DNA of 64,000 nucleotides, taken from positions 1,083-65,082 of the forward strand of contig JBAWWY010000007.1 in the NCBI GenBank assembly GCA_037144355.1, read 5' to 3'. A model generated the notes under the pieces. It was not told the origin of the DNA. It made no database searches and saw nothing but the letters and a program-made list of their open reading frames with translations. A program made the position numbers and the translations under genes. The DNA is from Eubacteriales bacterium. GTDB lineage: Bacteria > Bacillota > Clostridia > Peptostreptococcales > Anaerovoracaceae. Below, in pieces: positions 2,138 through 59,378 of the stretch (position 1 is the first letter of the stretch; each line of letters starts with the position of its first letter).

Positions 2138-2425
2138 ATGATGAGAATAGGTTTCGAAGGTGGATACAACCATATGATGTTATTTGGGGGAGTATTTATG
2201 TTTTTAATAGGAATAGTAGTAATAGGTTTATTGATTTATCTAGTTATGGCTGCTGCGAAGTCACATAAGATGATGGGGCATGGATATAGTCAGGCAACTA
2301 AGATTTCCAATAGTTCTGAAAGTCTAAATGAAAAGGCAATATTAATTTTGAATGAAAGATTCGCAAAGGGTGAAATAGATGAGGAAGAATACACAAGCAG
2401 AAAAGCTGCTATTTTGAAAAACTAG
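2138..2425 (+). CDS. Small membrane protein with a C-terminal SHOCT domain
   Basis: One hydrophobic helix (FMFLIGIVVIGLLIYLVMAA). The C-terminus LNERFAKGEIDEEEYTSRKAAIL matches the SHOCT short oligomerisation motif. Start moved to ATG 2138, which follows RBS aaaggtgg; the start is uncertain. Confidence 0.6.
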   Translation: MMRIGFEGGYNHMMLFGGVFMFLIGIVVIGLLIYLVMAAAKSHKMMGHGYSQATKISNSSESLNEKAILILNERFAKGEIDEEEYTSRKAAILKN

Positions 2426-2495
2426 ACGGGCATTTGAACTGATGCTTATTTGATTTCAAGTCCTCCACGGCTCTTCGAGCATTCAAATATAGATT

Positions 2496-2541
2496 AAAAA
2501 AACAGGCACCGCAAGATATATATTGTCGGGCTTGTTTTTTT
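2496..2541. terminator. Bidirectional rho-independent terminator between the convergent genes 2138-2425 (+) and 2593-4317 (-)
   Basis: aaaaaaACAGGCACCGCAAG-atatatat-TGTCGGGCTTGTttttttt: an imperfect GC-containing stem flanked by an A-run and a T-run. Confidence 0.55.
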
Positions 2542-2592
2542 GTTATCATATTATTTTATTTTAAATTTATTTGCATAATCATTATCTTGAAA

Positions 2593-10697: not shown

Positions 10698-11276
10698 TTA
10701 TATTTTAATTGAATTACTTGCATTGTTTAGTTTTTCCACTATAGAGTACATATTAGATACTGAACCAATAATCAATTTATCGGTCAAACCGTAAAAATTC
10801 AAGCAGGCTCCACAAGTTAATATTTCTATACCATCGGCTTCCAATGTTCTTAGACTTTCTTCCACGACAGAACCCTCAACTGTGAAAAATACGCCACTAT
10901 TGATAAAAATCAATGTCTTAGGTCTAGGTGTCACTTCTGTAATTGCATACAGGTAACTTTTCATGAGGCTTTCTCCCAGCTCTTTTGCGCCTTGCCCAAA
11001 CGTATCTGTGCTGACAAGAATTACTAAACTGCCTTCTTTCTCAAAAGCTTCAATATCTTTCTCCTTTTGAATTGTAACTTTGTATAAATTCTTATCCTGG
11101 ATATTACTAACAGTATATCCAAGGCTTTCGGCAAAATTGGTCAGATTTTTAAGAGCAATATCATTGTCTACAATAGTTGTAACTGTACCTTCCGTCATTG
11201 TGTCCAATAATCTCTTTGTTTCTATAATTGGTTTTGGGCATTCCCATCCTTGCGCATTGATAATTTGTTCCATCAT
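10698..11276 (-). CDS. yedF: YedF-type protein: TusA/SirA-like N-domain fused to a DsrE-like C-domain (selenium/sulfur metabolism protein YedF family)
   Basis: 192 aa. The N-terminus GWECPKPIIETKRLL carries the CPxP motif of TusA-like proteins. The C-terminal half resembles DsrE (ILTCGACLNFYGL). Confidence 0.75.
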   Translation of the reverse strand: MMEQIINAQGWECPKPIIETKRLLDTMTEGTVTTIVDNDIALKNLTNFAESLGYTVSNIQDKNLYKVTIQKEKDIEAFEKEGSLVILVSTDTFGQGAKELGESLMKSYLYAITEVTPRPKTLIFINSGVFFTVEGSVVEESLRTLEADGIEILTCGACLNFYGLTDKLIIGSVSNMYSIVEKLNNASNSIKI

Positions 11277-13637: not shown

Positions 13638-13671
13638 TGGAAGTCATTCCCCTCTGCATACCTATATGGGG

Positions 13672-13700
13672 AAAAAGAGGGCAATCTCAGCCCTCTTTTT
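13672..13700 (-). terminator. Hairpin with flanking A/T runs between the oxidoreductase structural gene and the accessory operon
   Basis: AAAAAGAGGGC-7 nt-GCCCTCTTTTT. It lies 29 nt downstream of the stop at 13729 and 35 nt upstream of the start at 13637. Confidence 0.6.
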
Positions 13701-13728
13701 CCCAGTATTTATAGGTAATATAATGATC

Positions 13729-16485
13729 TTATTTAGGCATTGCTGCCAATACTTTTTCTGGAAGAATCGGTAAATCTCTAACTCTTGCACCGCAAGCATC
13801 TGCGATTGCATTGGCAATTGCTGCATGAGGGCTGCAATGAACAACCTCGCCAATACCGGATGAACCGAATTTGCTATGTGGTCTTGGTGTTTCAAGATAG
13901 ATTAATTCGATGTCATCAGGAACATCAGCGATAAAAGGTATTCCGCATTTCATAAGCGTATTATGTTTTGTTAGATCCTCAAAATCCTCGCTTAACGCTA
14001 AGCCGATTGATTGCGCTAATCCGCCATAAGCCTGTCCATCAACAACAGTTTTGTTCCCTATCTTGCCTACATCGTAAACTCCAGTTGCTTTAACAACTTT
14101 AACTTTACCTGTTTTAACATCCACTTCAGCTTCAGTTACGAACGCGCCATACATGAATGCCACATAAGGATTGAATTGACCTGTCTTTTCATCAATTGTA
14201 GTACAAAGCGGCGTACTGGAATAATTGCCAGTGTAATAAGTATCAATATTTTCCGCTTTCATTTCTTCTAATGTTCTAAATGATCCATCTGCTTTTTTCA
14301 TAGCCTTGATTAAGTTTTCGCAAGCATCTCCTATTGCATTTCCTACAAACAATTGGCTTCTACTTCCAGCTGCAGGACCACTGTCAGGGCATTTTGCCAT
14401 ATCATTCAGTACAAGTTTGATGTCTTCTGGCTTGATTTTCAACTCTCTTAATGCTTCATGAGAAGTTGATAATGCTCCCATATCTCCACCCTGGCCATGA
14501 TCTTCCCAAGTTGTATATATTGCTACTTTGCCGTCGCCGATTAATTCACATGCCGCTGTTGATTCATCAACTGTATCATTTCCAACACAGTAAATCCCAA
14601 GAGCGACACCAACGCCTCGTCTTTTTTCAGGTGTGTCAAACTTTGCTTTTCTTTCTAATGCTTCCTTATATTTAGGCCTTAAGATGTCGAAAATCTGTTT
14701 TAGAACATAAACATCTGGAGCGCTTCCTGTAGGTGTAGTGGACCCTTTTTCAGGATCATACAAGTTGTTATATCTGAACTCAAAAGGATCTTGACCGAAT
14801 TTTCTAGCCAATTCATCTATGGCGCTTTCACCTGCGAGAAAACTTTGAGGTGAACCATAAGCTCTCATTGGTGCTCCATAGCAATGATTTGTAAATGTCA
14901 TTTTTCCTAATGCTCTGATATTGTCAAGATGGTACCCTGCTCCAATGAACTGATTTCCCTTAGTTAGGAGCAAATCAGAAAATTCAGAGTAAGCGCCATG
15001 ATCTGCAAGGAAATTTGATTCCATTCCAAGCAATTTTCCATCTTTGTCACATCCCATTTTAAGCTTCATAAAGAATGGTGAACGTTTTCCAGTATAAGTA
15101 ATAGACTGAGCCATATCCATTTCCAAATAACAAGGTTTGCCAGTTGCCATTACAGCAATCCCGATATATTGTTCGATTGTATTGCAAAGCTTATATCCGA
15201 ATGTTCCGCCAGCGTTATTTTGGATGTATCTGAACTTCTCTGGGTCTATTCCAAGAGCGTCTACAATCATAACTGAATTCAAGTAAATTCCAACTGACTT
15301 TGAACAAATAGTTAAACGTTCTTCTTCGTCCCAATATCCATATGCTACATCTGGCTCTAAGAAAAGATGTGGCTGTCTTTGCACATAATATTCTTCTTCA
15401 ATAACGGCTGCTGCCTTGTCAAATAAAGTTTTTGGATCTACTCCCTTTATTGTTGCCTGTTCAAAGTGAATATTAGGTGTGCCAGGGTGAATTTCTAATG
15501 CATCAGGTGCCGCTGCAGCTTTTGCATTCATGTAGGCTGGCAATTCTTCAACTTTAACTACAACTTTGTCTGCTGCCGCTCTTGCATGTTCCTCAGTGTC
15601 AGCACAGACAATCGCCATTACATCCCCAAATTGAAATATTTTTTCGTCACAAAGAAGTGGTCTATCAAAACCATCTCCCTTATTCCATGGATAAGTTACA
15701 AATCCATTTACACGATTTGTCCCCTTAACATCTTTTGCAGTTAACACAGCTTCCACGCCAGGCATTTTTTCTGCTTCAGCGAAATCAATTGAAAGAATAT
15801 TCGCATGTGAAACTTTGGCTTGAACTAGTGCTAGTTTTAGGACTCCTTCAGGTAATTTTGTTCCTGTATCCGCGCCGTAGTCAAAAGTACCTGTTACTTT
15901 TGCTATTCCGGATGGACGTGGATAATCAGTTCCATAAATTCTGCCATCAGCAGGCATTTTGAACTGTAATTCCTCAATTTTCATTTCGCCGCGCATTACT
16001 TTTGCAGCTGCCATTACTGCATCAACGATTGGTTTATAACCAGTACATCGACAAACATTTCTGTTTTTTTGGAACCAGTCTCTAACTTGTTCTCTTGTTG
16101 GATTACTATTTTGATCTAATAGGTTTTTTGCTGCCACAATAAATCCTGGCGTACATATACCACATTGTGCTGCTCCATGTTTTACCCAGGCAGCTTGCAA
16201 TGGATGAAGATTGTCAGGATTTCCAACACCTTCAATAGTAGTAATTGTAGCTCCATCAGCAACCTTGTTCATTTTAACCAGGCATGCTCTTACAACCTTG
16301 CCATCTAAAATAACTGAGCAAATACCACATTGATTGACACGACATCCAACTTTTGTTCCAGTCATTCCCAATTGTTTTCTAATAACATCAACCAGGATTT
16401 CCTCTCCAGTAACTAGCACGGTTCTTATACTGCCATTTACCATCAAGTCTTTTCTCTTGTAGATTTTCTTTGCATTTTCAGACAT
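13729..16485 (-). CDS. Molybdopterin-dependent aldehyde oxidoreductase / molybdenum hydroxylase, single-polypeptide Mop type (2x[2Fe-2S] + Mo-pterin domains, no FAD domain)
   Basis: 918 aa. The N-terminus has GCRVNQCGICSV and CGICTPGFIV (two 2Fe-2S sites). A long a/b-hammerhead and Mo-binding region follows. The C-terminal SSGIGEVV contains the conserved catalytic Glu context. Size and architecture match the D. gigas aldehyde oxidoreductase type. Confidence 0.85.
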   Translation of the reverse strand: MSENAKKIYKRKDLMVNGSIRTVLVTGEEILVDVIRKQLGMTGTKVGCRVNQCGICSVILDGKVVRACLVKMNKVADGATITTIEGVGNPDNLHPLQAAWVKHGAAQCGICTPGFIVAAKNLLDQNSNPTREQVRDWFQKNRNVCRCTGYKPIVDAVMAAAKVMRGEMKIEELQFKMPADGRIYGTDYPRPSGIAKVTGTFDYGADTGTKLPEGVLKLALVQAKVSHANILSIDFAEAEKMPGVEAVLTAKDVKGTNRVNGFVTYPWNKGDGFDRPLLCDEKIFQFGDVMAIVCADTEEHARAAADKVVVKVEELPAYMNAKAAAAPDALEIHPGTPNIHFEQATIKGVDPKTLFDKAAAVIEEEYYVQRQPHLFLEPDVAYGYWDEEERLTICSKSVGIYLNSVMIVDALGIDPEKFRYIQNNAGGTFGYKLCNTIEQYIGIAVMATGKPCYLEMDMAQSITYTGKRSPFFMKLKMGCDKDGKLLGMESNFLADHGAYSEFSDLLLTKGNQFIGAGYHLDNIRALGKMTFTNHCYGAPMRAYGSPQSFLAGESAIDELARKFGQDPFEFRYNNLYDPEKGSTTPTGSAPDVYVLKQIFDILRPKYKEALERKAKFDTPEKRRGVGVALGIYCVGNDTVDESTAACELIGDGKVAIYTTWEDHGQGGDMGALSTSHEALRELKIKPEDIKLVLNDMAKCPDSGPAAGSRSQLFVGNAIGDACENLIKAMKKADGSFRTLEEMKAENIDTYYTGNYSSTPLCTTIDEKTGQFNPYVAFMYGAFVTEAEVDVKTGKVKVVKATGVYDVGKIGNKTVVDGQAYGGLAQSIGLALSEDFEDLTKHNTLMKCGIPFIADVPDDIELIYLETPRPHSKFGSSGIGEVVHCSPHAAIANAIADACGARVRDLPILPEKVLAAMPK

Positions 16486-16598: not shown

Positions 16599-17639
16599 TT
16601 AATAGCCAAAGCTGCAATCCGGATATGTGCAGTTTTCGCACGCAAGACACATTCCACCGTAGGCAAGTTTAGTGATATCTTCCCTTGTAATCTTTTCACC
16701 TGAAAGTATTCTTGGTATAACCAAATCAAATACACTCGCTTTATGATACATGACACATCCAGGTAATCCAACTACAGGAATATCTCCGATTTCAGCAAGC
16801 ATAAACATGGCGCCAGGCAATACTGGAGCACCATAGGTGATTACCTTTCCACCAGCGGCTCTGATTCCAGAAGGCGAGAGATCGTCTGGGTCTACTGACA
16901 TCCCACCAGTTACAGCTATCATATCCGCACCTTTGCCAAGCAAATCATGAACCGCTTTTACAATTTCCTCAATTGAATCAGGCACAAATATTTGCTGCAT
17001 TATATGGCTTCCAAGTGCTTCAAATTTTGTTTTCAATATAGGCCCAAATTGATCCTTTATTCTTCCGTGATATATTTCACTGCCAGTTGTAATGACTCCA
17101 ACCTGGAAACTTTTAAAAGGTTTGACCTCAATTATTGGATCATTACCACCGCACAACTCTTCAATCTGTCTTAAAAAATGGTCTTCAATAACTAATGGTA
17201 CAATTCGTGCTCCAGCGACTTGTTTCCCCTTTTGCACAAACCTATTTCCCTTAATTGTTGACAAAACAATCTGATCTATTGCATTGACTTCGAATAATCT
17301 TTCTACATTGATTTTAAGCAATCCTTCTATGGCCGCTGTTATTACTACCTTGCCCTCGTTTGGTTCAGTAAATTCAACACCACTTCCTGATGCAGCCATT
17401 GCAATTTGCATGGCAGCTTCATTTTCATGAGTATAACCATTCTGCAAATCCCAAACATAAATATTTTCTTTCCCAATATCAAGCAGCTTGGCAATATCCT
17501 CGCTCTTAATAATATGTCCTTTTTTAAAAAGTCTTCCCTTGAATTCTCCAGGAACAATTTTCGTTATATCGTGGCAGAGGGTCATTCCAACTGCATCTCT
17601 AACATTTACACATTCCAATTTTTCACCTTCATCATTCAA
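16599..17639 (-). CDS. Molybdopterin-binding protein (MoeA-like N/linker region + MoCF-biosynthesis domain) with a Cys-rich C-terminus
   Basis: 346 aa. VGVITTGSEI..., AVTGGMSVDPDDLSP (MoaB/MogA/MoeA-type domain), and C-terminal CLACENCTYPDC. Confidence 0.7.
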   Translation of the reverse strand: MNDEGEKLECVNVRDAVGMTLCHDITKIVPGEFKGRLFKKGHIIKSEDIAKLLDIGKENIYVWDLQNGYTHENEAAMQIAMAASGSGVEFTEPNEGKVVITAAIEGLLKINVERLFEVNAIDQIVLSTIKGNRFVQKGKQVAGARIVPLVIEDHFLRQIEELCGGNDPIIEVKPFKSFQVGVITTGSEIYHGRIKDQFGPILKTKFEALGSHIMQQIFVPDSIEEIVKAVHDLLGKGADMIAVTGGMSVDPDDLSPSGIRAAGGKVITYGAPVLPGAMFMLAEIGDIPVVGLPGCVMYHKASVFDLVIPRILSGEKITREDITKLAYGGMCLACENCTYPDCSFGY

Positions 17640-17674
17640 TATATAATCAATTAATTTGCATATTATTACTATTT

Positions 17675-18451
17675 TTAAGATGTTTTATTCATGTTTTCAT
17701 TGTTATTTTTCGCAATGAGTGCGGCGCCAATTGCTCCAGCGAATTCTGAGTGACGATGTATTTCAAGCTCCATTCCCATTTGCATTTCCAATGCGGTTTT
17801 TAGAGCATTGCAATTTGCCCCGCCACCTACCAGCACTCCTTTTCCTTCTTTGAATTTTATTGCCATGGAATAAATCCTTTTGGCAATTGACTGATAGATT
17901 CCTCCAATTATGTTATCAATATTCTCTCCGGAAGCGATTAAACCAATAATCTCACTTTCAGCAAAGACCGTACACATACTGCTTATTTGTGATGGTTGCT
18001 TGAAATTTGCCTGTTCAGCAAATACCTTCATATCCATTCCAAGCCTCTCTGCCATTACTTGCAAAAACTTTCCAGTTCCAGCGGCACATTTGTCATTCAT
18101 GATAAAATCAAGAACTTTACCTGAATGATTGACTTTTATCACCTTGCAGTCTTGACCGCCAACATCGATAATAAAATCAATATCATGGAATAAATATGCG
18201 CTTCCCTTTGCATGGCACGTAATCTCAGTAATCTGCTCATTGGAAGGATAAAGGCCTCTTCCGTACCCAGTTGTTACAGAATAAGAGACATCTCCTTTTG
18301 TCTTTTGACATTGTTCCAACAATTCTGCGACCATATGCTCGGCCCCAACTCTGGGGTTCCAACCGGTCTCTGTTTTTTCGAAATATATTTCACCTTGATC
18401 AATCGCAACTGCTTTGATAAAAGTTGAACCTACATCAATTCCTAAATACAA
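17675..18451 (-). CDS. BcrAD/BadFG/HgdC-family ATPase (activase of 2-hydroxyacyl-CoA dehydratase / benzoyl-CoA reductase type)
   Basis: 258 aa. YLGIDVGSTFIKAV (ASKHA phosphate-1), DVGGQD, NDKCAAGTGKF and CTVFAESE (cluster-bridging Cys motifs). Apparent TTG start after RBS agaagga. Confidence 0.8.
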   Translation of the reverse strand: MYLGIDVGSTFIKAVAIDQGEIYFEKTETGWNPRVGAEHMVAELLEQCQKTKGDVSYSVTTGYGRGLYPSNEQITEITCHAKGSAYLFHDIDFIIDVGGQDCKVIKVNHSGKVLDFIMNDKCAAGTGKFLQVMAERLGMDMKVFAEQANFKQPSQISSMCTVFAESEIIGLIASGENIDNIIGGIYQSIAKRIYSMAIKFKEGKGVLVGGGANCNALKTALEMQMGMELEIHRHSEFAGAIGAALIAKNNNENMNKTS

Positions 18452-18814
18452 AACATCCTTCTTTCATGTCCATAGTCTATCTGTCAGATCCCAGTCCCAC
18501 AATAAAATAGACTATTCTTATAAAAAGACCAGCCTTCATGACTAACAATTAATTACTCAAAATACTAATCATCCAATTTGACAATTAGTTATTGTAATTT
18601 TGTCAGTAGGCCTTCTCCTTTTCACAATGGAGTAGAATCTATTATTTAATTTATTGGTTTTAGGCTAACATATTCGCAATTTTTTGTCAATGATTAAAGT
18701 AACATTATAAGTGTGTCCGCCTATGCGTGAATTGCCTTTTTCCAACGTTAATTCCAAATTAGCATTAAATATTGTGCCAGGTTTGAAACTAATATTATAA
18801 AATGCTTCAGACAA

Positions 18815-19372
18815 TTATTGTGCCATTTTCTTGCCTAGTTCAAATGCCTTGCTTAATGTTTCATCATTAGTCGCAATTTCCCCAGATTCTCCTGCTGTAG
18901 CATGAACAATTCCAGCAATTTCTCCCCCACAATGGTTAAATATATCCTGAAATGTTCTAAAAGCATTGACTGCTCCGGAAGAAAATGCATCTTCATCTGC
19001 ATAAGTCATAATTATGCCTGCTTGCTTATTTTCCAAAAATAGTTCGTTTTTCATGTAAACTGAAAACCATCGGTCAATAAACAGTTTCATTTGCCCCGAC
19101 ATATTGAACCAATATACTGGGCTCGCCAATATTATCCCATCCGCTTCTTCAATTGATTTATAAAATTTTTTCATGTCATCTTCTATTATGCAATCAATAT
19201 TCTCATCGGAACAACTTTCGCATGCAATACAAGGTTTGATTGATTCATTTCTTAGAAGAATTTCAATTACCAATCCCCCTTTAGATAGAACTCCTTCTAT
19301 TGCCTTGTCAGCAAGTAGGTCTGTGTTTCCGCCAGCTCTTGGACTTCCTTTTACTACAAGTATTCTTTTCAT
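18815..19372 (-). CDS. Flavodoxin-like fold NAD(P)H-dependent FMN reductase / iron-sulfur flavoprotein-like protein
   Basis: MKRILVVKGSPRAGGNTDLL N-terminus, CIACESC motif, and ASPVYWFNMSGQMK. Start set at the second ATG, which has better RBS spacing. Confidence 0.7.
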   Translation of the reverse strand: MKRILVVKGSPRAGGNTDLLADKAIEGVLSKGGLVIEILLRNESIKPCIACESCSDENIDCIIEDDMKKFYKSIEEADGIILASPVYWFNMSGQMKLFIDRWFSVYMKNELFLENKQAGIIMTYADEDAFSSGAVNAFRTFQDIFNHCGGEIAGIVHATAGESGEIATNDETLSKAFELGKKMAQ

Positions 19373-19414
19373 TTTTCCCATCCTTTTAACAAGTTTCCTT
19401 GTTCAATATTATAT

Positions 19415-19807
19415 CTAGTGCTTATGCCCTTCACAACTTCCTTGATGGATATGGATATCATCTTCCTCATTTTCCGGATTTTTAAAATATCCCAAATTTT
19501 GCGAATTCATTCTATTGATTGCTTCTTTTGCCGTGAGACCTCTTCCATCAAAGCGGGTAACCCCTTCATTAGCCAATATATTAAAGGCTTCATAGTTTAA
19601 GATTCCTGAGATAAGGGCTTCGCAGTTTTCTTCTATTACAACAACCGCCAAGGCTGTTTCCGGCATATCGAATGGATAACTTGATTTTGAACTCATTCTC
19701 AACGTATCATCATCGATCTCCATGATTAATAGGAATTTCGACATGGAAAATCTTTCATCAATAATTCCATCCACGTTGTCTATATTTGTTGAAATCGCTA
19801 TTTTCAT
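19415..19807 (-). CDS. NifB/NifX-family (dinitrogenase FeMo-cofactor-binding fold) small protein with a His/Cys-rich tail
   Basis: 130 aa. MKIAIST...DERFSMSKFLLIMEID pattern, and C-terminal HIHQGSCEGHKH. Confidence 0.5.
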   Translation of the reverse strand: MKIAISTNIDNVDGIIDERFSMSKFLLIMEIDDDTLRMSSKSSYPFDMPETALAVVVIEENCEALISGILNYEAFNILANEGVTRFDGRGLTAKEAINRMNSQNLGYFKNPENEEDDIHIHQGSCEGHKH

Positions 19808-20037
19808 ATTTCCCCCTTAGTAAAATCTTCTTGTTTTGTAGTATGTAAATCTCACTTCATTATAGTAAATGTCCTATTGATTATATTTTACCTGGTTTTC
19901 ATTTGTCAAATACTAAAACATTATTATAGAAGCAAAATTCATGTAAATGGTTTTTACAACCATTATGAAATCCTTATGGTTTGATGGTATAATATGCAAA
20001 ACAATTGTATTATTTTTTACTAATAGGAGAGTGGGCT

Positions 20038-20997
20038 ATGATAAAGTTGATAATCTTTGGAACGGGTGTTGGTTTAAATAAATTATTGAAGGCAATTGCA
20101 TATGAGCATATTAAGATAGTGGCTATCGTCGACAATGATCATAAGAAATGGGGAAATTCCATATGTTTGCTGCAAGTTCAATCCCCTGATGTGATTAAGA
20201 ATCTTGAGTTTGATTTCATCGTAATTGCAAGTCAATCTTATAACCAAATATTACAGCAGTTATTAATGATGGGTATCGATAGGAAAAATCTAATAAATTT
20301 CTTTTCTGCAAATTTATGGGATTTCACTGGAGTTCCAACTTTAAGTATATATGATACTAGTAAACTTTCTGAAGATAGGTTGATTATTAACACCATGGAG
20401 AAGCTAGGTCGGAAAAGATTGTTAGATACCAGTGATGGCGATTATGTAAGGCGTTCGACTTTAGAATTGATGGCCAGCGAAATATACTCAAAGAATCTTT
20501 CTGGGAATGTGGCTGAACTGGGTGTTTATCAAGGTGGTTTTGCAAGAATTTTGAATGAAGTATTTTCCGATCGCTTGCTTTACCTATTTGATACGTTTGA
20601 AGGTTTTGACCAAAAGGATATTGAGGAGGAACTCCTCCATGATTATTCGAAATCAAGTACGAGGACTTTTTCGAACACAAGTGCCGATGCTGTACTGCAG
20701 TCTATGCCTCATCCTGAAAATTGCATAATTAAAAAAGGATACTTTCCCCATACAACTCAAGATATTGATGATGCTTTTTCTTTTGTGAGCATTGATGCGG
20801 ATTTGTTCAATCCAACCTATGAGGGTCTGAAATATTTCTATCCGCGTCTTGTCAAAGGTGGATATATATTAATTCATGACTATAATAATATAGACTATTT
20901 AGGTGTTAAGGATGCTGTGAAGCAGTTCTGTAATGAGTTTGGAATTCCTTATTTTCCACTCAGTGATATTTGTGGAAGTGTTTGCATATCAAAATAA
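20038..20997 (+). CDS. TylF/MycF-type (macrocin-O-methyltransferase family) methyltransferase with an N-terminal Rossmann-like extension
   Basis: NVAELGVYQGGFARIL, FDTFEGF, SIDADLF and ILIHDY motifs. Start moved to ATG 20038, which follows aggaga. Confidence 0.65.
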   Translation: MIKLIIFGTGVGLNKLLKAIAYEHIKIVAIVDNDHKKWGNSICLLQVQSPDVIKNLEFDFIVIASQSYNQILQQLLMMGIDRKNLINFFSANLWDFTGVPTLSIYDTSKLSEDRLIINTMEKLGRKRLLDTSDGDYVRRSTLELMASEIYSKNLSGNVAELGVYQGGFARILNEVFSDRLLYLFDTFEGFDQKDIEEELLHDYSKSSTRTFSNTSADAVLQSMPHPENCIIKKGYFPHTTQDIDDAFSFVSIDADLFNPTYEGLKYFYPRLVKGGYILIHDYNNIDYLGVKDAVKQFCNEFGIPYFPLSDICGSVCISK

Positions 20998-21031
20998 TCG
21001 AATCCATAAAGCCTCATTCAATTACTATTAA

Positions 21032-21409
21032 CTAGATTTTTATTTTATTGGAGGTATTATTTAGTTTCGCGACTATATTATACATATTTGATACAGTACC
21101 AATTATCAATTTCTCAGTCAGTTTATAATAGTTTAAACATGTACCGCATGATAGTATTTCAACCCCTTCTGCCTCCAATGTTCTTAAGCTCTCCACAACA
21201 GTTGAGTCTTCAGTTGTAAGGAAAACACCTCTGTTTAGAAATATTAGAGTATCTGGCCTTGGATTGACTTCTGTAAGGCTGTATATAAAACTTTTCATGA
21301 GATTCTCACTAAGTTCTTTTTCTCCTTGTCCAAATTGGTCTGAAGTGATAACAATCACCATTTTATCATCCAAGCAAGGTTTTGATTTAATGTCCATTGA
21401 TCCATTCAC
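21032..21409 (-). CDS. DsrE-like protein, paralogue of the C-terminal half of YedF (no TusA domain)
   Basis: 125 aa, collinear with YedF residues ~85-192: QFGQGEKELSENLMKSFIYSLTEVNPRPDTLIFLNRGVF...ESLRTLEAEGVEILSCGTCLNYY...VSNMYNIVAKLNNTSNKIKI. Confidence 0.7.
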   Translation of the reverse strand: MNGSMDIKSKPCLDDKMVIVITSDQFGQGEKELSENLMKSFIYSLTEVNPRPDTLIFLNRGVFLTTEDSTVVESLRTLEAEGVEILSCGTCLNYYKLTEKLIIGTVSNMYNIVAKLNNTSNKIKI

Positions 21410-21483
21410 TAGCTTTCCTCCTCGTTTGCTCTTTTAGTTTTTTATATCCTCTAAATTATAATACTCCTCATTGAATTGTCAAA

Positions 21484-21520
21484 TAAAAAGCCAACCCCGA
21501 CGTTATTCGAGGTTGGCTTA
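21484..21520 (-). terminator. Rho-independent terminator downstream of 21560-22708
   Basis: Minus strand: AGCCAACC-loop-GGTTGGCTTTTTATTT. Confidence 0.7.
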
Positions 21521-21559
21521 TATACAATGCTTAATTCATATTCTTATTGTCTCTTTTTA

Positions 21560-22708
21560 CTATATCATCTCAATTAGAGCACTAACTCTAACTTTAAGCT
21601 GTTCCAAATCTGAAGATGAATAATCCGTTTCAATATGCAAATATGGAAGACCTAGCTTTTCTTTGACAAGTTTTTCTATTGCTACGGCTTCAATATTGTA
21701 AGTATGGCATGCCTGCCAAGTCAAATCAATGACTGCATCTACTTTGAATTCACGTGCAAGCATTTCCAGCTTTTCTTCCCTCATGTTATTTGGTGACATT
21801 ATCGAGCAAGGTATTTGAATATATCTTTGCGCAAGTGCTAAATAAGGATCCTCTACCGCAAGTTTTTCATCAACCAGCAAGTCCACAGTTTTATACCCTG
21901 TACAGTTTTCAAAGACAACAATATTGCCGCCGCATTCTTCAACAATGGAAAATATTTTATCACTGCCTACTCCTGTGGGAACTCCAGTAAGTAAAATCCT
22001 TGGTGTGCTCATAGAGTCATTGTATATTTGGCTCGCAATATTCTTTTCCAATTCAGAAATTAGGTTCTCAATCATATGAATCCGCTCAATCCTATTTAGA
22101 TGGAATCCGCTTTGCCATGAAACTTTTAGCATTTCCTTTCCGGAAATGACTGCAGGTTTGTTTTTATTCAAGTCAAAAAGTTTTTTGACAGTTCTTCTTT
22201 CTTTATTAAGTAGTTTTATCGACCCGATTATTTCATCTTGAGAAACCACTTTCCCTGTAACTTCTTGAATATGTTCCTTAAGTCTTATTATTTCATCTTT
22301 CATTACCGCAAGGGCTTGTTCGCTTTGATTTGGAAGCATTTGCATAATATGAACATTTTTAAATCCAGACATAAGTTCATACATTTTTTTCTTCCCATCA
22401 CAAGTTGTCTCTCCAACAATCATATCTGAAAAAAAGAAGTAGGGGCATTTATCTGATACAGCAAAGCCATATGAGGATTTAATCAATGGGCATAGGTTCC
22501 TTGGCAGGTCCTTTTCCGCATCGATTATGGGTTCTTCCTTCGTGCCACATAAAGTAACAGCATAAGCTCCGGCAGCATCTGCAATTTCCTGTGGTGCATA
22601 TGTGCAGTAAAAGCCAAATGTTTTTTTGCCAGTGTCCTTTGATTCTTTTAAAATCATCATATTCTGGTCTCTTAGATTGTCAAATTGTTTTGTTGCTTCG
22701 ATTGTCAT
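21560..22708 (-). CDS. 2-hydroxyacyl-CoA dehydratase (HgdB/BcrBC) superfamily protein, possibly double-cubane-cluster-protein-like
   Basis: 382 aa single-subunit member. FGFYCTYAPQEI, LCGT, NLCPLIKSS, ETTCDGKKKM, NCTGYK and WQACHTY give scattered conserved Cys. Stop is TAG, immediately followed by TAA. Confidence 0.6.
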   Translation of the reverse strand: MTIEATKQFDNLRDQNMMILKESKDTGKKTFGFYCTYAPQEIADAAGAYAVTLCGTKEEPIIDAEKDLPRNLCPLIKSSYGFAVSDKCPYFFFSDMIVGETTCDGKKKMYELMSGFKNVHIMQMLPNQSEQALAVMKDEIIRLKEHIQEVTGKVVSQDEIIGSIKLLNKERRTVKKLFDLNKNKPAVISGKEMLKVSWQSGFHLNRIERIHMIENLISELEKNIASQIYNDSMSTPRILLTGVPTGVGSDKIFSIVEECGGNIVVFENCTGYKTVDLLVDEKLAVEDPYLALAQRYIQIPCSIMSPNNMREEKLEMLAREFKVDAVIDLTWQACHTYNIEAVAIEKLVKEKLGLPYLHIETDYSSSDLEQLKVRVSALIEMI

Positions 22709-22720
22709 AGTTATTCCTTC

Positions 22721-23311
22721 CTATTCTTTCACTTTAATACTTTTACCATTATAAAATGGATTGTTGCCCTTTGAAAGCATGTCTTTTGGAAGCCTTGTGA
22801 ATAAAAAAGCTACCAATAAGGCCGTGAATATCTTATCTATGAAATTACCTGTAATTCTTGGAATAAAGGCGGCAGTAAAGATATCCTGACCGCTTTTTAC
22901 CAGCCATAAGAATATGAAGTCATTTCCTCCGCCAGTTATTCCTCCATAGATCCAAACAGCGATTGGTGATCCAATCAATGGCGCAACAACGGAAATAATC
23001 AATCCCGTAATAAGCGCGGTTACGTAATTAAACTTGAACTTCCTAGCAATAAAGCCTACTATAATTCCAATTGCAATATTAACCAAGGCAAATGGGATAT
23101 CTTTAGGATTTGTGATAACCCCTTGGATAACATTCGTAAGCAGCCCAATTAATGCTCCATACCAGGGTCCAAGAAGAACTGCCCCGAAGAAAGTGCCAAC
23201 CGTGTCAAGAAAAATCAACGGTATTTTAAATAGCTGAACGACAGTCCCAAGTATTAAATTGATAGCTATGCAAATTGCACTGAAAGTGATAAAAAAATTC
23301 TTTGATTGCAT
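22721..23311 (-). CDS. ECF-transporter substrate-capture (S) component-like membrane protein
   Basis: 196 aa, about 6 TM. LILGTVVQLFKIPLIFLDTVGTFFGAVLLGPWYGALIGLLTN resembles S-component signatures. No EcfAAT genes are present in the window. Confidence 0.55.
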   Translation of the reverse strand: MQSKNFFITFSAICIAINLILGTVVQLFKIPLIFLDTVGTFFGAVLLGPWYGALIGLLTNVIQGVITNPKDIPFALVNIAIGIIVGFIARKFKFNYVTALITGLIISVVAPLIGSPIAVWIYGGITGGGNDFIFLWLVKSGQDIFTAAFIPRITGNFIDKIFTALLVAFLFTRLPKDMLSKGNNPFYNGKSIKVKE

Positions 23312-23328
23312 TTTGTTGCCTCCTTCTA

Positions 23329-23883
23329 TTAAATAAATATTTCATTTATTGCAAAAATTCCCAATTCAGGATTCTCTTCATCCAAAGCTATAAATTTCAT
23401 TTTGATTTGATTTTCTAAAAGGCATTTTTCTATTTCCTCAATGAAAATACCTTTGCCTTCAACCATTTTTAAATCTTTTATTTTGCTTTCGATTTCATTC
23501 CCATTACCAATTTCTCCACCCCAAACCCTTGAAGAGCATGTCTTGTGAACACCGCAACTTGGGCTACCGTCAATTCCTATTATCGCTCTAATGGTATAGC
23601 CATTATTATGATAATCTACTATTTGATCCAGAAATGGCATGAATAATTCTTTGCAATGTTTTCTAAAGTATGGTGTGTCATATTGTTCCTTAACTTGTCC
23701 CCATCTTCTTATTCCAGCGAATGTTGTTTCTGGACAAGGTAGTTGGATTATTCCTAACTTCTTGTCAATCAGATATGAAATTATGCTTTCCTCCAAACCA
23801 TCACCTTTGGATGAACCATCAACTTTTGAATGTCGATTTAATAGGCAGTGGCATGTCAGTACAATATCTTTTTTTCTTTCCAT
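23329..23883 (-). CDS. DUF523/TudS-related Cys-rich protein (putative [4Fe-4S] desulfidase-like)
   Basis: 184 aa with CHCLLN...VDG, LPCPE and DGSPSCGV. This is the three-Cys pattern I associate with DUF523/TudS proteins. Confidence 0.45.
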   Translation of the reverse strand: MERKKDIVLTCHCLLNRHSKVDGSSKGDGLEESIISYLIDKKLGIIQLPCPETTFAGIRRWGQVKEQYDTPYFRKHCKELFMPFLDQIVDYHNNGYTIRAIIGIDGSPSCGVHKTCSSRVWGGEIGNGNEIESKIKDLKMVEGKGIFIEEIEKCLLENQIKMKFIALDEENPELGIFAINEIFI

Positions 23884-23940
23884 AACAACCCCTTTTTCCT
23901 TTTCTCATAGCAAACTATGATATATATCACTTAATTATGA

Positions 23941-23958
23941 TTTGCAAAATTTATGCCA
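23941..23958 (-). promoter_or_regulatory. Sigma-54 (-24/-12) promoter for the operon 23883->21560
   Basis: Minus strand reads TGGCATAAATTTTGCA. GG and GC have the exact consensus spacing (TGGCAC-N5-TTGCW). It lies ~55 nt upstream of the ATG at 23883, adjacent to a sigma-54 activator gene. Confidence 0.75.
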
Positions 23959-24132
23959 TTACTCTAGTTTGTTGCAAATCAATGCTTTTGCAATTTACTA
24001 TTTCAAAATTGGCAAAAAAATGTACCAATTTGAATCAGCCTGTAAGGTGATGAACCAAATTGATACAATACCGTATTTTTACTTCATATCTCATTAATTT
24101 TCGGTAATTTATGTATTATTATGAAACAGTAT

Positions 24133-25521
24133 CTATTGATTATTATTTTTTAATAGCTTTCCCGCATGCAAGTTGTCGGTAAATTTTCCTTGATTAACCA
24201 CCATTTGACCATTTATTATCACATGGCTAATTCCCCTTGGTGGTGCGTCCGGTTGGCCTTTACCAATATATTCAGCGCAATCAATAATATTGTTATAATC
24301 AAAGATTACAATATCAGCATCCATATTTTCGCTAATCCTGCCCTTACCAGTCAACCCAAATCTTTCAGCAGGGAGAATAGTAATTTTTCTAATTGCTTCC
24401 ATCAAGTTTATTTCTTTTTTATCCCTTACATATCGTCCTATCAACCTTGGGAATGTACCTGATACCTCAGGAGATCCCATCCCAGGATAGTGAGGACCTT
24501 CAGCAGCACTTGTTGAGACAAAAATATACGGTTTCTTTAGAGCCATGGAAATCGCAGTTTCGTCACATACGAAGGCAGTAACCAATGTCCCCGGAAATTC
24601 TCTTCGAAGATATTCAAAAAGGTCTTCATCGCAATATGTCCCCATATATATTCCCGAAGTTATCAATAAATCTTTAGCGGAAAATTTTCCATATGCCTTC
24701 TCCCAGCCTGGATCAAAAATACTAGTTCCGATTCCCACTGAATAAGCATCATAAACCCCGCTGTCAGCTGTTATATCAAGCCCCTCAACTCTCCCTGCTT
24801 CTATGATTTCCAAGGCTTTTCCCATTGTACCCCCGATTCCCACCATATATACAAGTTCCAACAAGTGAATACTTGCTCCAGTAAACTCAGCAGCCTGTAT
24901 AACTTCGTCGAAATATTGAATTGCATCTTTTCCATCCTTTCTCAATTGGATGGTTACTGGCCTGTTATATCTTTTAGCTAATTTAGACAATTCAATGATT
25001 TCCCTAAAAGATGTCCCAGGTACAAATTCCAATCCAAAACAAATTCCATATGCACCATGGTCCATAAAACTTTCAGCCAAGTCTACCATGGTGTTTATTT
25101 CTTTCTTGGTTGCCGATACCCTTGGGTTCAATGCCCCTGCAGCAGCCCTCAATGTAAAGGAATGTGATATGAAAAATCCTTGGTTGACTACAAAACCATC
25201 TTCGGCAATTTTTCTTATGGTCCTGCCGTTCAGGTTTCTCTCTCCACCTAAAGTTGTTGTACCACCTTGTCTAACCAGGCACTTTGCCGAAAATTCATTT
25301 CCATCCACATGGGAATGAAAATCAATGAAACCTGGAGAAACAAATTTGCCTTTGGCATCAATCGTAACCTTGCCAAAGATTTTAATTCTTGTTATGATTT
25401 TAATTTTCCCATTGCTGATCCCTATATTGAATTCCTCAACTATTTCATTGACCACGTCAATAACCTGGCCATTCAAAATAACCAAATCATACTTTATTTC
25501 TTCTTCCAGATCTTTGTCCAT
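24133..25521 (-). CDS. Metal-dependent amidohydrolase (D-aminoacylase / cyclic amidase-like), paralogue 1
   Basis: 462 aa. SPGFIDFHSHVDG (HxH metal site), TTTLGGER, and C-terminal DADIVIFD. Confidence 0.75.
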   Translation of the reverse strand: MDKDLEEEIKYDLVILNGQVIDVVNEIVEEFNIGISNGKIKIITRIKIFGKVTIDAKGKFVSPGFIDFHSHVDGNEFSAKCLVRQGGTTTLGGERNLNGRTIRKIAEDGFVVNQGFFISHSFTLRAAAGALNPRVSATKKEINTMVDLAESFMDHGAYGICFGLEFVPGTSFREIIELSKLAKRYNRPVTIQLRKDGKDAIQYFDEVIQAAEFTGASIHLLELVYMVGIGGTMGKALEIIEAGRVEGLDITADSGVYDAYSVGIGTSIFDPGWEKAYGKFSAKDLLITSGIYMGTYCDEDLFEYLRREFPGTLVTAFVCDETAISMALKKPYIFVSTSAAEGPHYPGMGSPEVSGTFPRLIGRYVRDKKEINLMEAIRKITILPAERFGLTGKGRISENMDADIVIFDYNNIIDCAEYIGKGQPDAPPRGISHVIINGQMVVNQGKFTDNLHAGKLLKNNNQ

Positions 25522-25538
25522 TCAAACTCCCAACATTT

Positions 25539-27521
25539 TTAAATCAAGCCGTTTTTTCCCAATATTCTATAGATTGTCGATCTGCTAACTTGGAGAACAT
25601 CAGCAGCTTTTCTAATATTTCCATTATTGCTGTCTAGAATATTTTTAATATATCTTGCGGTGGCTTTTTCTAATGATTCAATTTCAATCATAGCAGTTGA
25701 TTTTTCCTGGCTATTGTCCATAATATCCTTCGGGATTACATTTATGTTTATTGTTTCTTGCTGGGACATAATAAGCATTCTCTCAATTACGTTGTAAAGT
25801 TGTCTAACATTGCCTGGCCAATTGTATTTCATTAGAATTTCCTGAACATCTTTGCCAATTCTTTTATTCTTATTTTGTATATTGTTGCTATTCAGAAGAT
25901 AATGGTTTATTAAAGTAGGTATATCGCTTTTTCTTTCCCGCAAAGCTGGCAATTTAATATGAATAACATTCAATCTGTACAATAAATCTTCTCTGAAGTT
26001 GCCATGCTCCACTTCTTGCTTCAAATCAGAATTGGATGCAGAAATGATTTGAACATCGATTGGTATCGGAACATAACCCCCAATCCTAACAATCCTATTT
26101 TCCTGCAGTACTCTAAGAAGCTTGACCTGCATCTCAAATGGCATATTCCCGATTTCATCCAAGAAAAGAGTCCCTCCATTTGCTAATTCAAATTTGCCGC
26201 GATGGCCACCTTTTCTAGCGCCTGTATAAGCACCTTCTTCGTAACCAAAGAGTTCGCTTTCCAGCAATTCTCTTGGAATTGCACCACAGTCGACTGCTAT
26301 GAAAGGTCCGTTCCTTCTTTTACTGCTATTGTGGATTGCCTGGGCAAACATTTCCTTCCCAGTCCCACTTTCTCCTTCAATTATTATTCTGGTTCCATGT
26401 GAAGCGGCCTTTCTTCCAAGATCAATAGCTTCTTCCAACAAATTCGACTTGCCGACAATATCTCCGAAAGTGAAGTACGCCCTATTTTCAGCATTAAGCT
26501 GAGTAGCCATTTCCTGGATTTCAGCCATTTTGGTGAAGACTAGTATCCGATTTAAATCCTCTTTATCGTCGGTTGTTAAAAACCTGAGATTTAGAAAACA
26601 ATTATAACTATTAAGCTTTCCGACAATACGTATTTCCTTGATTTTCGAAGCACCTTCAATTGTATTGATATTCCCAATTATTTTGGGTGAGGTCTGAAGC
26701 ATACTAACGCTGTTGCCAATTAAATCTTCTTTCCTTACCCCAGCCATCTGTGCAATAACATTATTGGCCTGTGTAATTATATTTTTACTATTTATATATA
26801 TTATTCCTTCAGCAACCGTATTTATTATGTCATCTTGTTGTATATTCTGATTTAATATTTGAGAATGTATCTCCTTTAATTGAAGTTCATTTTCAATTGC
26901 TTTTGCAGCTGCGACTATCATACCAAGTGTATATTTGCTAAGAGAGTTTATTTGGCCTATCATGCTTAAAATTGCAATTGGCCTTTCGTCCCTATCAAAT
27001 ATAGGCGCCGCATAGCTTGCATTCTTTTGAAAAATCTGGCAGTAATGCTCCGCTCCAACCACGTCGATAGGCTTTCCACTGATAAGTGATAGTCCGCAAG
27101 CGGTTGTGCCGATAATATTTTCATTAATGCTGCTTCCGATTGGGAAAACCAATTCGTTATCGCTAATAAAATTTGAATTGTTCAAATTCCTAAGCAAATA
27201 ACCTTCATTATCAATGATTTGAATGCTTATCCCAATCTCATCGACAATTTCTATCAACGTTTCCATAAATGGAAGCGCTGTATTTATCAGCTCTGAATTT
27301 AATTTTATCCGCTTTGAAAGATCATCCTGAGCTATGGTTGCTTGTGGAAGTTCTCTCATCATGTAATCAATATTGTACTTCTTAGATCTTTTCCATGAAT
27401 CCAAAATCTCCTGACGCATAGCTTCATCAATAATCTTCCCTGTACGAACAAAATTAACCCAGGCATATTCATACCTAAGTATTTCAGGGTTTTCCGCATT
27501 TAGAAATGGGTCGTAATTCAT
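25539..27521 (-). CDS. Sigma-54-dependent transcriptional activator (N-terminal AcoR-like/GAF + PAS + AAA+ + Fis-type HTH), paralogue 1
   Basis: 660 aa. GESGTGKEMFAQAIH (Walker A), the GAYTGA loop (GAFTGA variant), FLDEIGNMP, and C-terminal AADVLQVSRSTIYR. Confidence 0.9.
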   Translation of the reverse strand: MNYDPFLNAENPEILRYEYAWVNFVRTGKIIDEAMRQEILDSWKRSKKYNIDYMMRELPQATIAQDDLSKRIKLNSELINTALPFMETLIEIVDEIGISIQIIDNEGYLLRNLNNSNFISDNELVFPIGSSINENIIGTTACGLSLISGKPIDVVGAEHYCQIFQKNASYAAPIFDRDERPIAILSMIGQINSLSKYTLGMIVAAAKAIENELQLKEIHSQILNQNIQQDDIINTVAEGIIYINSKNIITQANNVIAQMAGVRKEDLIGNSVSMLQTSPKIIGNINTIEGASKIKEIRIVGKLNSYNCFLNLRFLTTDDKEDLNRILVFTKMAEIQEMATQLNAENRAYFTFGDIVGKSNLLEEAIDLGRKAASHGTRIIIEGESGTGKEMFAQAIHNSSKRRNGPFIAVDCGAIPRELLESELFGYEEGAYTGARKGGHRGKFELANGGTLFLDEIGNMPFEMQVKLLRVLQENRIVRIGGYVPIPIDVQIISASNSDLKQEVEHGNFREDLLYRLNVIHIKLPALRERKSDIPTLINHYLLNSNNIQNKNKRIGKDVQEILMKYNWPGNVRQLYNVIERMLIMSQQETININVIPKDIMDNSQEKSTAMIEIESLEKATARYIKNILDSNNGNIRKAADVLQVSRSTIYRILGKNGLI

Positions 27522-27683: not shown

Positions 27684-28004
27684 TTAGAAATTGACAACCT
27701 TGTCAGCCCATTCAACCATATCGACGCAATCAATCATAGTTGAAAGCGGACATATTTCCGTTCCCTCCATGTCTCTTGCTATAAGGCATGTTCCGCAAGC
27801 TAGGATTTCACCACCAGCCTGGTTGAATAAATTTAACTGTCCAGATACATCATACTTGAGATTTGATAGTGTTTCGATCTCAACAGCCTCTCCCATTAAA
27901 AATACTTTGACGTCGTGCCCTTTTTTCTTTGAAGCAACAGCAAAACGCAATGCATTCCAAGCCTTTTCATATTCTTTCGTTTCCAATATAATACCTATTT
28001 TCAT
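27684..28004 (-). CDS. DsrE/DsrF-like family protein
   Basis: MKIGIIL...AWNALRFAV...KVFLMGEAV...ACGTCL. Start set at MKIGI, which follows RBS ggaggg. Confidence 0.6.
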   Translation of the reverse strand: MKIGIILETKEYEKAWNALRFAVASKKKGHDVKVFLMGEAVEIETLSNLKYDVSGQLNLFNQAGGEILACGTCLIARDMEGTEICPLSTMIDCVDMVEWADKVVNF

Positions 28005-28063
28005 TGTTTTCCCTCCGATCACTTGTATTTGCTTAAATTACTCTACAAATACTATACCTCATT

Positions 28064-59076: not shown

Positions 59077-59093
59077 TTGACTAAAAGGTTACT

Positions 59094-59258
59094 TTTTCAA
59101 CACTATATATAAAAAACTGGTTTCAATTTTAGAATATTTGTGAGAAATTCATAATTATGTTTATATATTCTACACTATATCATTTTATTATAATCTTTGG
59201 TGTTTATATTTTCAACACATACTAATTATTTTCGCTTATATGATGATATTTTCAACAC
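59094..59258. promoter_or_regulatory. Three copies of TTTTCAACAC upstream of the sigma-54 promoter (candidate activator binding sites)
   Basis: Copies at 59095-59104, 59209-59218 and 59249-59258, in the same orientation. The last two are 40 nt apart and lie ~135-175 nt upstream of the -24 element. Confidence 0.45.
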
Positions 59259-59378
59259 TAATTGATATCGGATCAATAACTATCTCAACTCTGATGTGTC
59301 ACTATTTATAGTGTTATCGAAAGATCAGAAATCTAAAATCAAATTTGGTTATCCTCGTAAAAAGTAAACCAAAATGAA

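Follow-up and report, generated by a model that had tools for sequence, protein, structure and literature searches.

What drives a three-gene operon that joins a putative desulfidase, a subunit of an importer, and a double-cubane reductase, and what do these proteins accomplish together? The question is raised by the minus strand of a 64 kb window of contig JBAWWY010000007.1 (the window being the whole stretch of DNA that was analysed), which belongs to a 2.1 Mb genome with 99% completeness. The operon encodes a TudS-related protein of the CD3072 family, an S component of an energy-coupling factor (ECF) transporter, and a double-cubane cluster protein (DCCP), and is preceded by a predicted sigma-54 promoter, an amidohydrolase gene, and a gene for an activator of the enhancer-binding protein (EBP) type. 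Coordinates and strands are those of the window unless a contig is named; C1, C2, C16, C24, and C27 are contigs of the same genome. The locus as a whole is best explained as a sigma-54-inducible system for uptake and for the stripping of sulfur or selenium that feeds selenium carriers, an explanation to which slightly better than even confidence is attached. Its regulatory part is well supported, and its functional chemistry is put forward conditionally.

The predicted sigma-54 promoter, TGGCATAAATTTTGCA, is located at 23958-23943 on the minus strand (GG at 23957-23956 and GC at 23945-23944, hence GG-N10-GC), as described in an initial annotation made from the DNA letters. It lies in a 249-nt intergenic region upstream of the first gene of the operon, 59 nt 5′ of the ATG at 23883 rather than the approximately 55 nt given there, and transcription is predicted to start near 23932. 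The element is the sole match to the strict pattern TGGCAY-N5-TTGCW within the window. On the basis of 100 shuffles of the window, the strict motif is expected 0.25 times per shuffled window, and 22 of the 100 shuffles contain at least one match; therefore, the motif on its own is weak evidence, and the context carries the case. These shuffles are also what would favour a chance -24/-12 match in AT-rich DNA, with transcription of the operon owed either to read-through out of the EBP-amidohydrolase unit or to a sigma-70 promoter that escaped recognition, and the absence of a terminator between the amidohydrolase gene and the operon would permit such read-through. This alternative is nonetheless regarded as very improbable. 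The search for rpoN proposed in the initial annotation was carried out with genome profiles and identified the gene at C16:19830-21221 (TIGR02395, 480.8 bits), 12 EBPs are encoded in the genome, and one of them is adjacent to the element. Furthermore, when a relaxed -24/-12 pattern is counted genome-wide, 8 of 35 matches are found within 4 kb of an EBP gene (a zone covering 4.5% of the genome), against approximately 1.6 expected, one of the 8 being inside an EBP coding region. The enhancer geometry agrees, and the position of the element is conserved in all five related modules.

The strongest support for the predicted promoter is indeed comparative and comes from these recurring EBP-amidohydrolase modules. 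The amidohydrolase family is rare (3 of 399 genomes in a species-level sample of the class), and comparators for the module were taken from metagenome contigs. The EBP type is always paired with the amidohydrolase, here and in five further copies. In the same genome, the EBP/amidohydrolase pair recurs within the window at 53749-55713/52360-53715 and at C27:6789-8789/5390-6769; the external copies are located on three unrelated contigs, L033, L034, and L035, with amidohydrolases that are 63-66% identical. In the present locus, C27, L033, L034, and L035, the layout is the same, i.e., EBP, amidohydrolase, a spacer of 250-315 nt containing a palindrome and a -24/-12 element, and cargo, and only the second copy in the window differs in order, with the promoter before the cargo and the EBP pair last. 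Exactly one sigma-54-like GG-N10-GC element is found in the spacer 3′ of the amidohydrolase gene in L033, L034, L035, and C27 (TGGCATGAAATTTGCT, TGGTATAATGCTTGCA, TGGCACATAAGTTGCA, and TGGCATAGATATTGCG, respectively), and TGGCACGCTTCTTGCG is found ahead of the permease gene in the second window module.

A candidate upstream activating sequence (UAS), TGTATCAATTTGGTTCA-N13-TGATTCAAATTGGTACA, is located at 24021-24067 on the minus strand and comprises two sites of 17 bp each, TGT-N11-TCA and TGA-N11-ACA, the centres of which are 30 bp from one another. It coincides with the best inverted repeat, the 17-nt arms of which (24021-24037 and 24051-24067) are complementary at 14 of 17 positions and separated by 13 nt, and 86.5 nt separate the centre of this 47-nt palindrome from the -24 GG downstream. 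Double TGT-N11-ACA palindromes of 47-53 nt are found in four of the five homologous modules, centred 75.5-86.5 nt upstream of the GG (85.0 nt in C27, 86.5 nt in L035, 76.0 nt in L033, and 75.5 nt in L034). The informative part of the candidate site is its position, which agrees with the family to within one nucleotide or one helical turn. TGT-N10-12-ACA is the commonest type of UAS among Clostridiales EBPs (PMC6615313). The promoter and its candidate enhancer are considered genuine with high confidence on these comparisons, and the promoter itself is an ordinary kind of element.

The repeats that the initial annotation had listed as possible activator sites are all present, namely the inverted repeat TTGCAAA-N8-TTTGCAA (23972-23993, minus strand) between the UAS and the promoter, the AAATTGG/CCAATTT boxes at 24006-24012 and 24025-24031, which are 12 nt apart, and a third box at 24055-24062. 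The boxes stand, but the strongest inverted repeat pairs the second with the third and not the first with the second, and the 47-nt palindrome is a likelier activator site than the two repeats as paired there. The 23972-23993 repeat and the -12 box together contain three TTGCAA cores. This repeat also contributes an arm to a perfect 10-nt inverted repeat, TGATTTGCAA...TTGCAAATCA (23938-23947/23972-23981), the arms of which are 24 nt apart. The -24 box is enclosed by it and the -12 box overlapped, and a second regulator acting on the sigma-54 promoter may use it as an operator.

The activator (25539-27521, minus strand, 660 residues) comprises an AcoR/DhaR/MimR-like N-terminal sensor, a PAS domain, an AAA+ domain, and a helix-turn-helix of the Fis type. 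It matches PF00158 (227.8 bits), HTH_8, and PAS, is DhaR/PrdR-like over its full length, and has a GAYTGA loop, a variant that is tolerated and compatible with activation in a survey of Clostridiales EBPs (PMC6615313). Its orthologues carry the Pfam domain MimR_N, and its sensor domain is 48-57% identical to the sensors of modules controlling alcohol dehydrogenase genes. The earlier view that the sigma-54 promoter looks real and that its cognate activator is encoded upstream is consistent with these features. The amidohydrolase (24133-25521, minus strand, 462 residues) resembles N-acyl-D-amino-acid deacylases; it has Amidohydro_1 and Amidohydro_3 matches and scores 236.8 bits as a PRK09061-like protein, below the 340-bit cut-off. 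In C27, L034, L035, and the second window copy, the modules carry their usual cargo, an Fe-alcohol dehydrogenase together with an amino-acid permease of the APC family, and in L033 the cargo is a permease and a B12 diol dehydratase. The present locus carries neither the dehydrogenase nor the APC permease, and its cargo of TudS-related protein, ECF S component, and DCCP makes it a variant. EBP, amidohydrolase, UAS, and promoter would thus constitute one portable module, a conclusion that is well supported by these comparisons, and because the pair recurs with different cargo, the amidohydrolase is considered part of the regulator module and not of a heterocycle pathway.

This bears directly on the reading given in the initial annotation, in which the amidohydrolase, the TudS-like protein, the transporter, and the reductase form a single catabolic pathway for the uptake and degradation of one small heterocycle (a cyclic amide or a thionucleobase). 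The genes are adjacent and co-oriented, and the amidohydrolase superfamily includes hydantoinases and dihydropyrimidinases, the N-terminal matches here being weak. However, the amidohydrolase gene is located upstream of the sigma-54 promoter and outside the operon, at least five further EBP-amidohydrolase pairs accompany cargo of quite another kind, and none of the other TudS-related loci examined has such a pair. A single pathway of this kind is therefore judged improbable; the amidohydrolase travels with the activator, usually next to an Fe-alcohol dehydrogenase and an APC permease, and is withdrawn from the proposed pathway.

The origin of the pair as a recent duplicate within the genome was considered and rejected, since external amidohydrolases are 70-72% identical to that of the locus and are closer than the C27 paralogue at 66%. 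C27 carries a third module (C27:2415-8789), the closest paralogue in the genome (EBP 56% and amidohydrolase 66% identical), in which a near-perfect palindrome of 48 nt and the promoter TGGCATAGATATTGCG precede the genes for the Fe-alcohol dehydrogenase and the permease. In the second window module, TGGCACGCTTCTTGCG (59076-59061, minus strand) is located approximately 75 nt upstream of the APC permease gene (57591-58985) and is preceded by three GTGTTGAAAA(T/A) boxes, with repeats at about 59090-59260. Its operon comprises genes for the APC permease, the Fe-alcohol dehydrogenase, a 194-residue open reading frame (ORF), the paralogous EBP, and the amidohydrolase, and the module appears to be auto-regulated because the operon continues into the last two genes.

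How the module came to stand in front of this cargo is suggested by two relatives, the same-genus genome G001 (92% complete) and the metagenome contig L025, the TudS-related protein of which is 74% identical. In both, modABC is followed by the TudS-related and ECF S genes and then by convergent TylF, NifX-like, MoCF, and oxidoreductase genes, and in the sister genome the pair directly follows modC without a sigma-54 promoter. In nucleotide alignment, four blocks of the present locus have no counterpart in L025: 23909-28062, which holds the DsrE-family gene, EBP, amidohydrolase, enhancer, and promoter; 20996-22740, which holds DCCP, a terminator, a sigma-70 promoter, and a YedF half; 18750-19415, which holds a flavoprotein gene; and 17623-18500, which holds an activase gene. 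The DsrE-family protein (27684-28022, minus strand; PF02635, 47.6 bits) marks the upstream edge of the first block, and homology with L025 resumes at 23908, 25 nt before the ATG of the desulfidase gene. The alignment points to capture of the module in front of the desulfidase/ECF S pair, with gain here or loss in the relatives fitting equally, and that the module would replace whatever drives this pair in the sister genome is well supported. The joint variation of the four blocks suggests that they are functionally coupled.

The limits of the operon are clear from the spacing of its genes. The intergenic gaps are 17 nt between the desulfidase and ECF S genes and 12 nt between the ECF S and DCCP genes, and an intrinsic terminator (21519-21488, minus strand; its 13-bp stem contains 7 GC pairs, and its tail is rich in T) begins 40 nt after the DCCP stop codon. 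It is followed at 21455-21482 on the minus strand by a perfect-consensus sigma-70-type promoter, TTGACA-16-TATAAT, ahead of the next gene, which encodes a stand-alone, DsrE-like YedF half of 125 residues (21032-21409, minus strand; TIGR03527, 149 bits, profile positions 82-193). Because of the tight spacing and of the strong terminator and sigma-70 promoter that follow, the unit comprises three genes, in agreement with the initial annotation. The YedF half, which shares 67% identity with the C-terminal portion of full-length YedF (10698-11276), was considered as a fourth member and rejected, since the terminator and the perfect sigma-70 promoter separate it from the DCCP gene and give it its own transcription unit.

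The wider minus-strand order is modA-modB-modC (31036-28064), DsrE, EBP, amidohydrolase, promoter, TudS-related, ECF S, DCCP, and the YedF half. Beyond the latter are located a convergent TylF-type methyltransferase gene on the plus strand and genes for a NifX-like protein, an iron-sulfur flavoprotein, an HgdC-type activase, and a molybdenum aldehyde oxidoreductase with a cassette of the TrsS/DVU_1551-1557 type, among the members of which are a complete YedF, DUF3343, and a cysteine desulfurase. A second perfect 12-of-12 sigma-70 consensus (TTGACA-N16/18-TATAAT) on the minus strand, besides that of the YedF half, precedes the NifX-like gene at 19880-19909. The non-coding region 18501-18749, between the flavoprotein and activase genes, shares 80-83% identity with the intergenic region between NifX and MoCF in L025 and is at least as well conserved as the flanking coding DNA (69-83%); it may serve the aldehyde oxidoreductase operon as a leader or for control. 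Neither a known riboswitch nor a known leader was found by Rfam in 9000-33000, this region included.

Among the operon products, the first is a 184-residue, CD3072-family, TudS-related putative [4Fe-4S] desulfidase (23329-23883, minus strand) that scores 184.9 bits with NF045597 against a cut-off of 130. The CHC, LPCPE, and SPSCG motifs, from which it had initially been called a DUF523/TudS-like Cys protein, are present, and across 24 homologues H12, C13, C50, E52, S107, C110, and C116 are invariant; of the two Cys of CHC, only the second is invariant in the family. The DUF523 score (PF04463) is 24 bits, below the Pfam gathering threshold of 34.7, and the protein is therefore a relative of TudS/DUF523 and not a strict member. 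Searches of the Protein Data Bank (PDB) by sequence and profile returned nothing relevant, and only a fold search reached TudS: the best PDB match of the AlphaFold model (pLDDT 85) is TudS 6z96, with probability 1.0 and TM-scores of 0.49/0.56. The Cys, Glu, and Ser positions are probably equivalent to those of TudS, as judged by motif order rather than structural superposition. A distant paralogue at C1:551340-551813 is 39% identical and above the NF045597 cut-off; it has no adjacent ECF S or SBP_bac_3 gene, and a cysteine desulfurase homologue is encoded approximately 3 kb away.

The second product is a CD3073-family ECF S component of 196 residues (22721-23311, minus strand; NF045596, 250.8 bits against 180; PF12822, 49.9 bits). 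The family assignment of the initial annotation stands, and the missing local energiser to which it had pointed is not unusual, since a shared EcfA1-EcfA2-EcfT set is encoded on C24 (18269-19084, 19090-19899, and 19977-20642) and separation from it is ordinary group-II behaviour. In L050, the orthologous ECF S gene is followed by dedicated EcfT and EcfA genes. The two families are already a curated pair in NCBIfam, i.e., CD3072 (NF045597) and CD3073 (NF045596).

The third product, annotated initially as a radical-type reductase/dehydratase homologue, is more precisely a double-cubane [8Fe-9S] reductase (21560-22708, minus strand, 382 residues; NF040772, 487.7 bits against 350), the only DCCP in the genome, and it belongs to a selenium-linked clade, which points to sulfur/selenium handling and not to generic heterocycle reduction. 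Its cysteines C35, C54, C73, C103, C269, C301, and C334 (spacings 18, 18, 29, 165, 31, and 32) agree with the published seven-Cys pattern CX19CX18-19CX29CX166-170CX32-34CX32C (bioRxiv 10.1101/2022.07.06.499078), some spacings being one residue shorter than quoted. The nearest homologues (70-76% identity) are encoded in selA-selB-selD-activase-DCCP-YedF-DUF3343-desulfurase clusters; the next clade (60% identity) is not. Of 970 NF040772 DCCPs, 955 occur in genomes with SelD (bioRxiv 10.1101/2022.07.06.499078), and another published account connects YedF and DUF3343 with an activase and with a protein resembling HgdB (PMC5322559). The genome encodes SelD at C2:58546-59475, which is taken to contain selenocysteine because of an in-frame TGA. 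The presumed partner of DCCP is an HgdC/BcrAD-type ATP-dependent activase (17675-18451, minus strand; TIGR00241, 224 bits), the only close activase in the genome and missing from the corresponding site of L025. The iron-sulfur flavoprotein/FMN reductase (18815-19381, minus strand; PF03358), also missing from this sister locus, is a possible electron donor.

Whether the association of these proteins is particular to one genome was addressed with TudS-related loci gathered by an alignment-based contig scan; a single-protein scan confirmed none. An importer is adjacent in 60 of 80 named TudS-related loci (39 with an SBP_bac_3 ATP-binding cassette (ABC) system and 21 with a CD3073 ECF S component), and the pattern is likewise found in the species-level sample and in metagenome contigs. 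DCCP, activase, YedF, SelD, or an SclA-like gene is located within 9 kb of a TudS-related gene and importer at at least 8 loci; the chance occurrence of DCCP in such windows is well under 1%, a rough estimate from approximately 1-2 copies per 3-Mb genome. L050 has the order YedF-DCCP-TudSrel-ECFS-EcfT-EcfA. The clearest case of the desulfidase/importer pair inside a selenium cluster is L077 (5164-13963), from a metagenome-assembled genome of Halobacteroidaceae, with activase-DCCP-ECFS-TudSrel-SelD-(three small ORFs)-YedF-SclA-like genes that are co-directional and separated by short gaps. A 340-residue ORF with one in-frame TGA precedes this cluster. Further linked loci are L071 and L073 (Halanaerobium), L072 (Syntrophomonadaceae), L109 (Orenia), L015/L016, and L029. 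In a 400-genome sample of the phylum, SelD is encoded by 22 of the 23 genomes that carry a TudS-related gene and by 255 of the 377 that lack one, counts that are uncorrected for relatedness; G001 and G014 are exceptions to the association.

These neighbourhoods also bear on a mosaic origin of the operon. In that case, the TudS-related/ECF S pair would handle sulfur only, salvaging or detoxifying thionucleobases or thionucleotides; DCCP would act alongside the activase, the flavoprotein, and the DsrE/YedF-like proteins to mature (by sulfuration or selenation) the neighbouring molybdenum aldehyde oxidoreductase; and co-transcription would be an accident of insertion. The whole region is indeed bounded by modABC on one side and by the aldehyde oxidoreductase/TrsS cassette on the other, the activase gene is inserted between the conserved leader and the MoCF/oxidoreductase genes, sister genomes keep the pair without DCCP or SelD, and the characterised TudS enzymes act on thiouracil and 4-thio-UMP (PMC10611767). 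By contrast, DCCP, YedF, or SelD adjoins a TudS-related gene and importer at at least 8 other loci without an oxidoreductase context, most clearly L050 and L077, and no Mo enzyme is encoded close to the canonical selD-activase-DCCP-YedF clusters. A mosaic is considered a serious but rather unlikely explanation.

Under the favoured explanation, in which uptake and the stripping of sulfur or selenium are inducible, the EBP, the gene of which lies 1.6 kb upstream, would bind the palindrome at 24067-24021 and activate the sigma-54 promoter, and one transcript would run through the desulfidase, ECF S, and DCCP genes and stop at the terminator at 21519-21488. The ECF S component, powered by the shared EcfAA′T, would import a small compound of the thione or selone type, from which the TudS-related [4Fe-4S] enzyme would release sulfide or selenide by taking off the sulfur or selenium. 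With energy from the activase (17675-18451) and possibly electrons from the flavoprotein, DCCP may carry out a low-potential reduction in the same route, and carriers of the DsrE/YedF type may take the product, finally to SelD. A broader and more tentative proposal, on the doubtful side, is that the CD3072-type TudS relatives and their importers (CD3073 ECF S or SBP_bac_3 ABC systems) are the missing entry of organic selenium in anaerobes, i.e., "deselenidases" acting on an imported selone or seleno-compound, with DCCP, activase, and YedF/DsrE proteins delivering reduced selenium to SelD.

Several observations weigh against the favoured explanation. On the regulatory side, the candidate UAS taken alone is weak, because 31 of 300 shuffles reach its score, its arms agree at only 14 of 17 positions, and both inner half-sites are degenerate (TCA/TGA); the possible read-through from the amidohydrolase gene belongs here as well. 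No sigma-54 promoter was found 5′ of the TudS-related genes at approximately 45 other loci examined, and sigma-54 control is therefore lineage-specific and not a trait of the family. On the functional side, the activase gene is 3.1 kb downstream in the transcription unit of the Mo enzyme and is not co-transcribed with DCCP, and the SelD counts lack a correction for relatedness. Co-conservation of the three genes, on which the initial annotation had staked the operon, fails among the nearest relatives, where the trio is absent, and holds in distant lineages, where it recurs. Neither DCCP nor SelD was found in G001, in which YedF is present; since sister genomes keep the pair without DCCP, and G001 without SelD, the pair can work without selenium or DCCP, and the use of selenium may differ within the genus. 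In Clostridioides difficile 630, the source of the type genes CD3072 and CD3073, the pair is divergent and stand-alone, without DCCP and without a sigma-54 promoter, whereas the pair here, adjacent as in many genomes and above both curated cut-offs, is co-transcribed with DCCP under an EBP. To our knowledge, no substrate has been assigned to any member of CD3072, CD3073, or NF040772.

The statement of the initial annotation that no characterised pathway has this composition is supported. A literature search returned no paper on the CD3072/CD3073 pair and none linking it to selenium or DCCP. The interest of the locus lies in the capture of a cassette together with a recurring, uncharacterised, selenium-linked cargo that bears on the function of double-cubane reductases. 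The physiological substrate of these [8Fe-9S] reductases is an open question despite their near-perfect co-occurrence with SelD, and a second open question met here concerns the uptake of selenium by anaerobes and its processing on the way to SelD. In the locus and its relatives, DCCP is physically linked with an uptake protein and with an Fe-S enzyme proposed to strip sulfur or selenium, providing a testable three-step route; should the deselenidase proposal be true, it would give double-cubane proteins their first physiological role and, here, place the route under an inducible sigma-54 switch. Control by sigma-54 and an EBP, seen only here among the TudS-related loci examined, adds an experimental handle. 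Furthermore, the locus appears to be a clean natural case of regulatory rewiring by capture of an activator-enhancer-promoter cassette, with a breakpoint 25 nt before a start codon.

Comparison with known systems locates both the common and the particular features of the locus. The regulatory part resembles the sigma-54/EBP regulons of Clostridiales (AdhR, AorR, and SadR; Nie et al., 2019, PMC6615313) in the TGGCAT-N5-TTGC promoter, in an adjacent Fis-type EBP with a variant of the GAFTGA loop, and in candidate paired TGT...ACA sites approximately 100 nt upstream, and the sister modules of the locus, like those regulons, regulate alcohol dehydrogenase genes. By contrast, the inner half-sites here are degenerate, the EBP is always followed by an amidohydrolase, and the present cargo of desulfidase, ECF S component, and double-cubane reductase is not listed in that reconstruction. 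The first gene product shares its predicted fold with TudS (PDB 6Z96; PMC10611767), and three invariant Cys with a Glu and a Ser would suit a [4Fe-4S] cluster with a free iron; it differs in its low identity (approximately 17%), an extra C-terminal region of approximately 60 residues, a fourth invariant Cys, and a dedicated importer next door. DCCP belongs to the same family (NF040772) as DCCP/DCCP-R of Carboxydothermus hydrogenoformans (PMC9351452, PMC7317905), with seven Cys and an HgdC-type ATPase partner in the genome, although the partner here is 3 kb away in another transcription unit and DCCP is of the selD/YedF-cluster clade. One such selA-selB-selD-activase-DCCP-YedF cluster, in L032, is flanked by two sigma-54 EBP genes (2265-3665 and 12324-13739). 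The nearest DCCP homologues are found in selD-activase-DCCP-YedF-DUF3343-selenocysteine-lyase-like clusters (STRING links, Slackia heliotrinireducens, PMC5322559), and the adjacency of DCCP and YedF is kept here as DCCP followed by the YedF half. Unlike in those clusters, the remaining genes are dispersed, with selD on another contig and the activase, full YedF, DUF3343, and desulfurase among the Mo-enzyme genes, and DCCP is joined instead to a desulfidase/importer operon.

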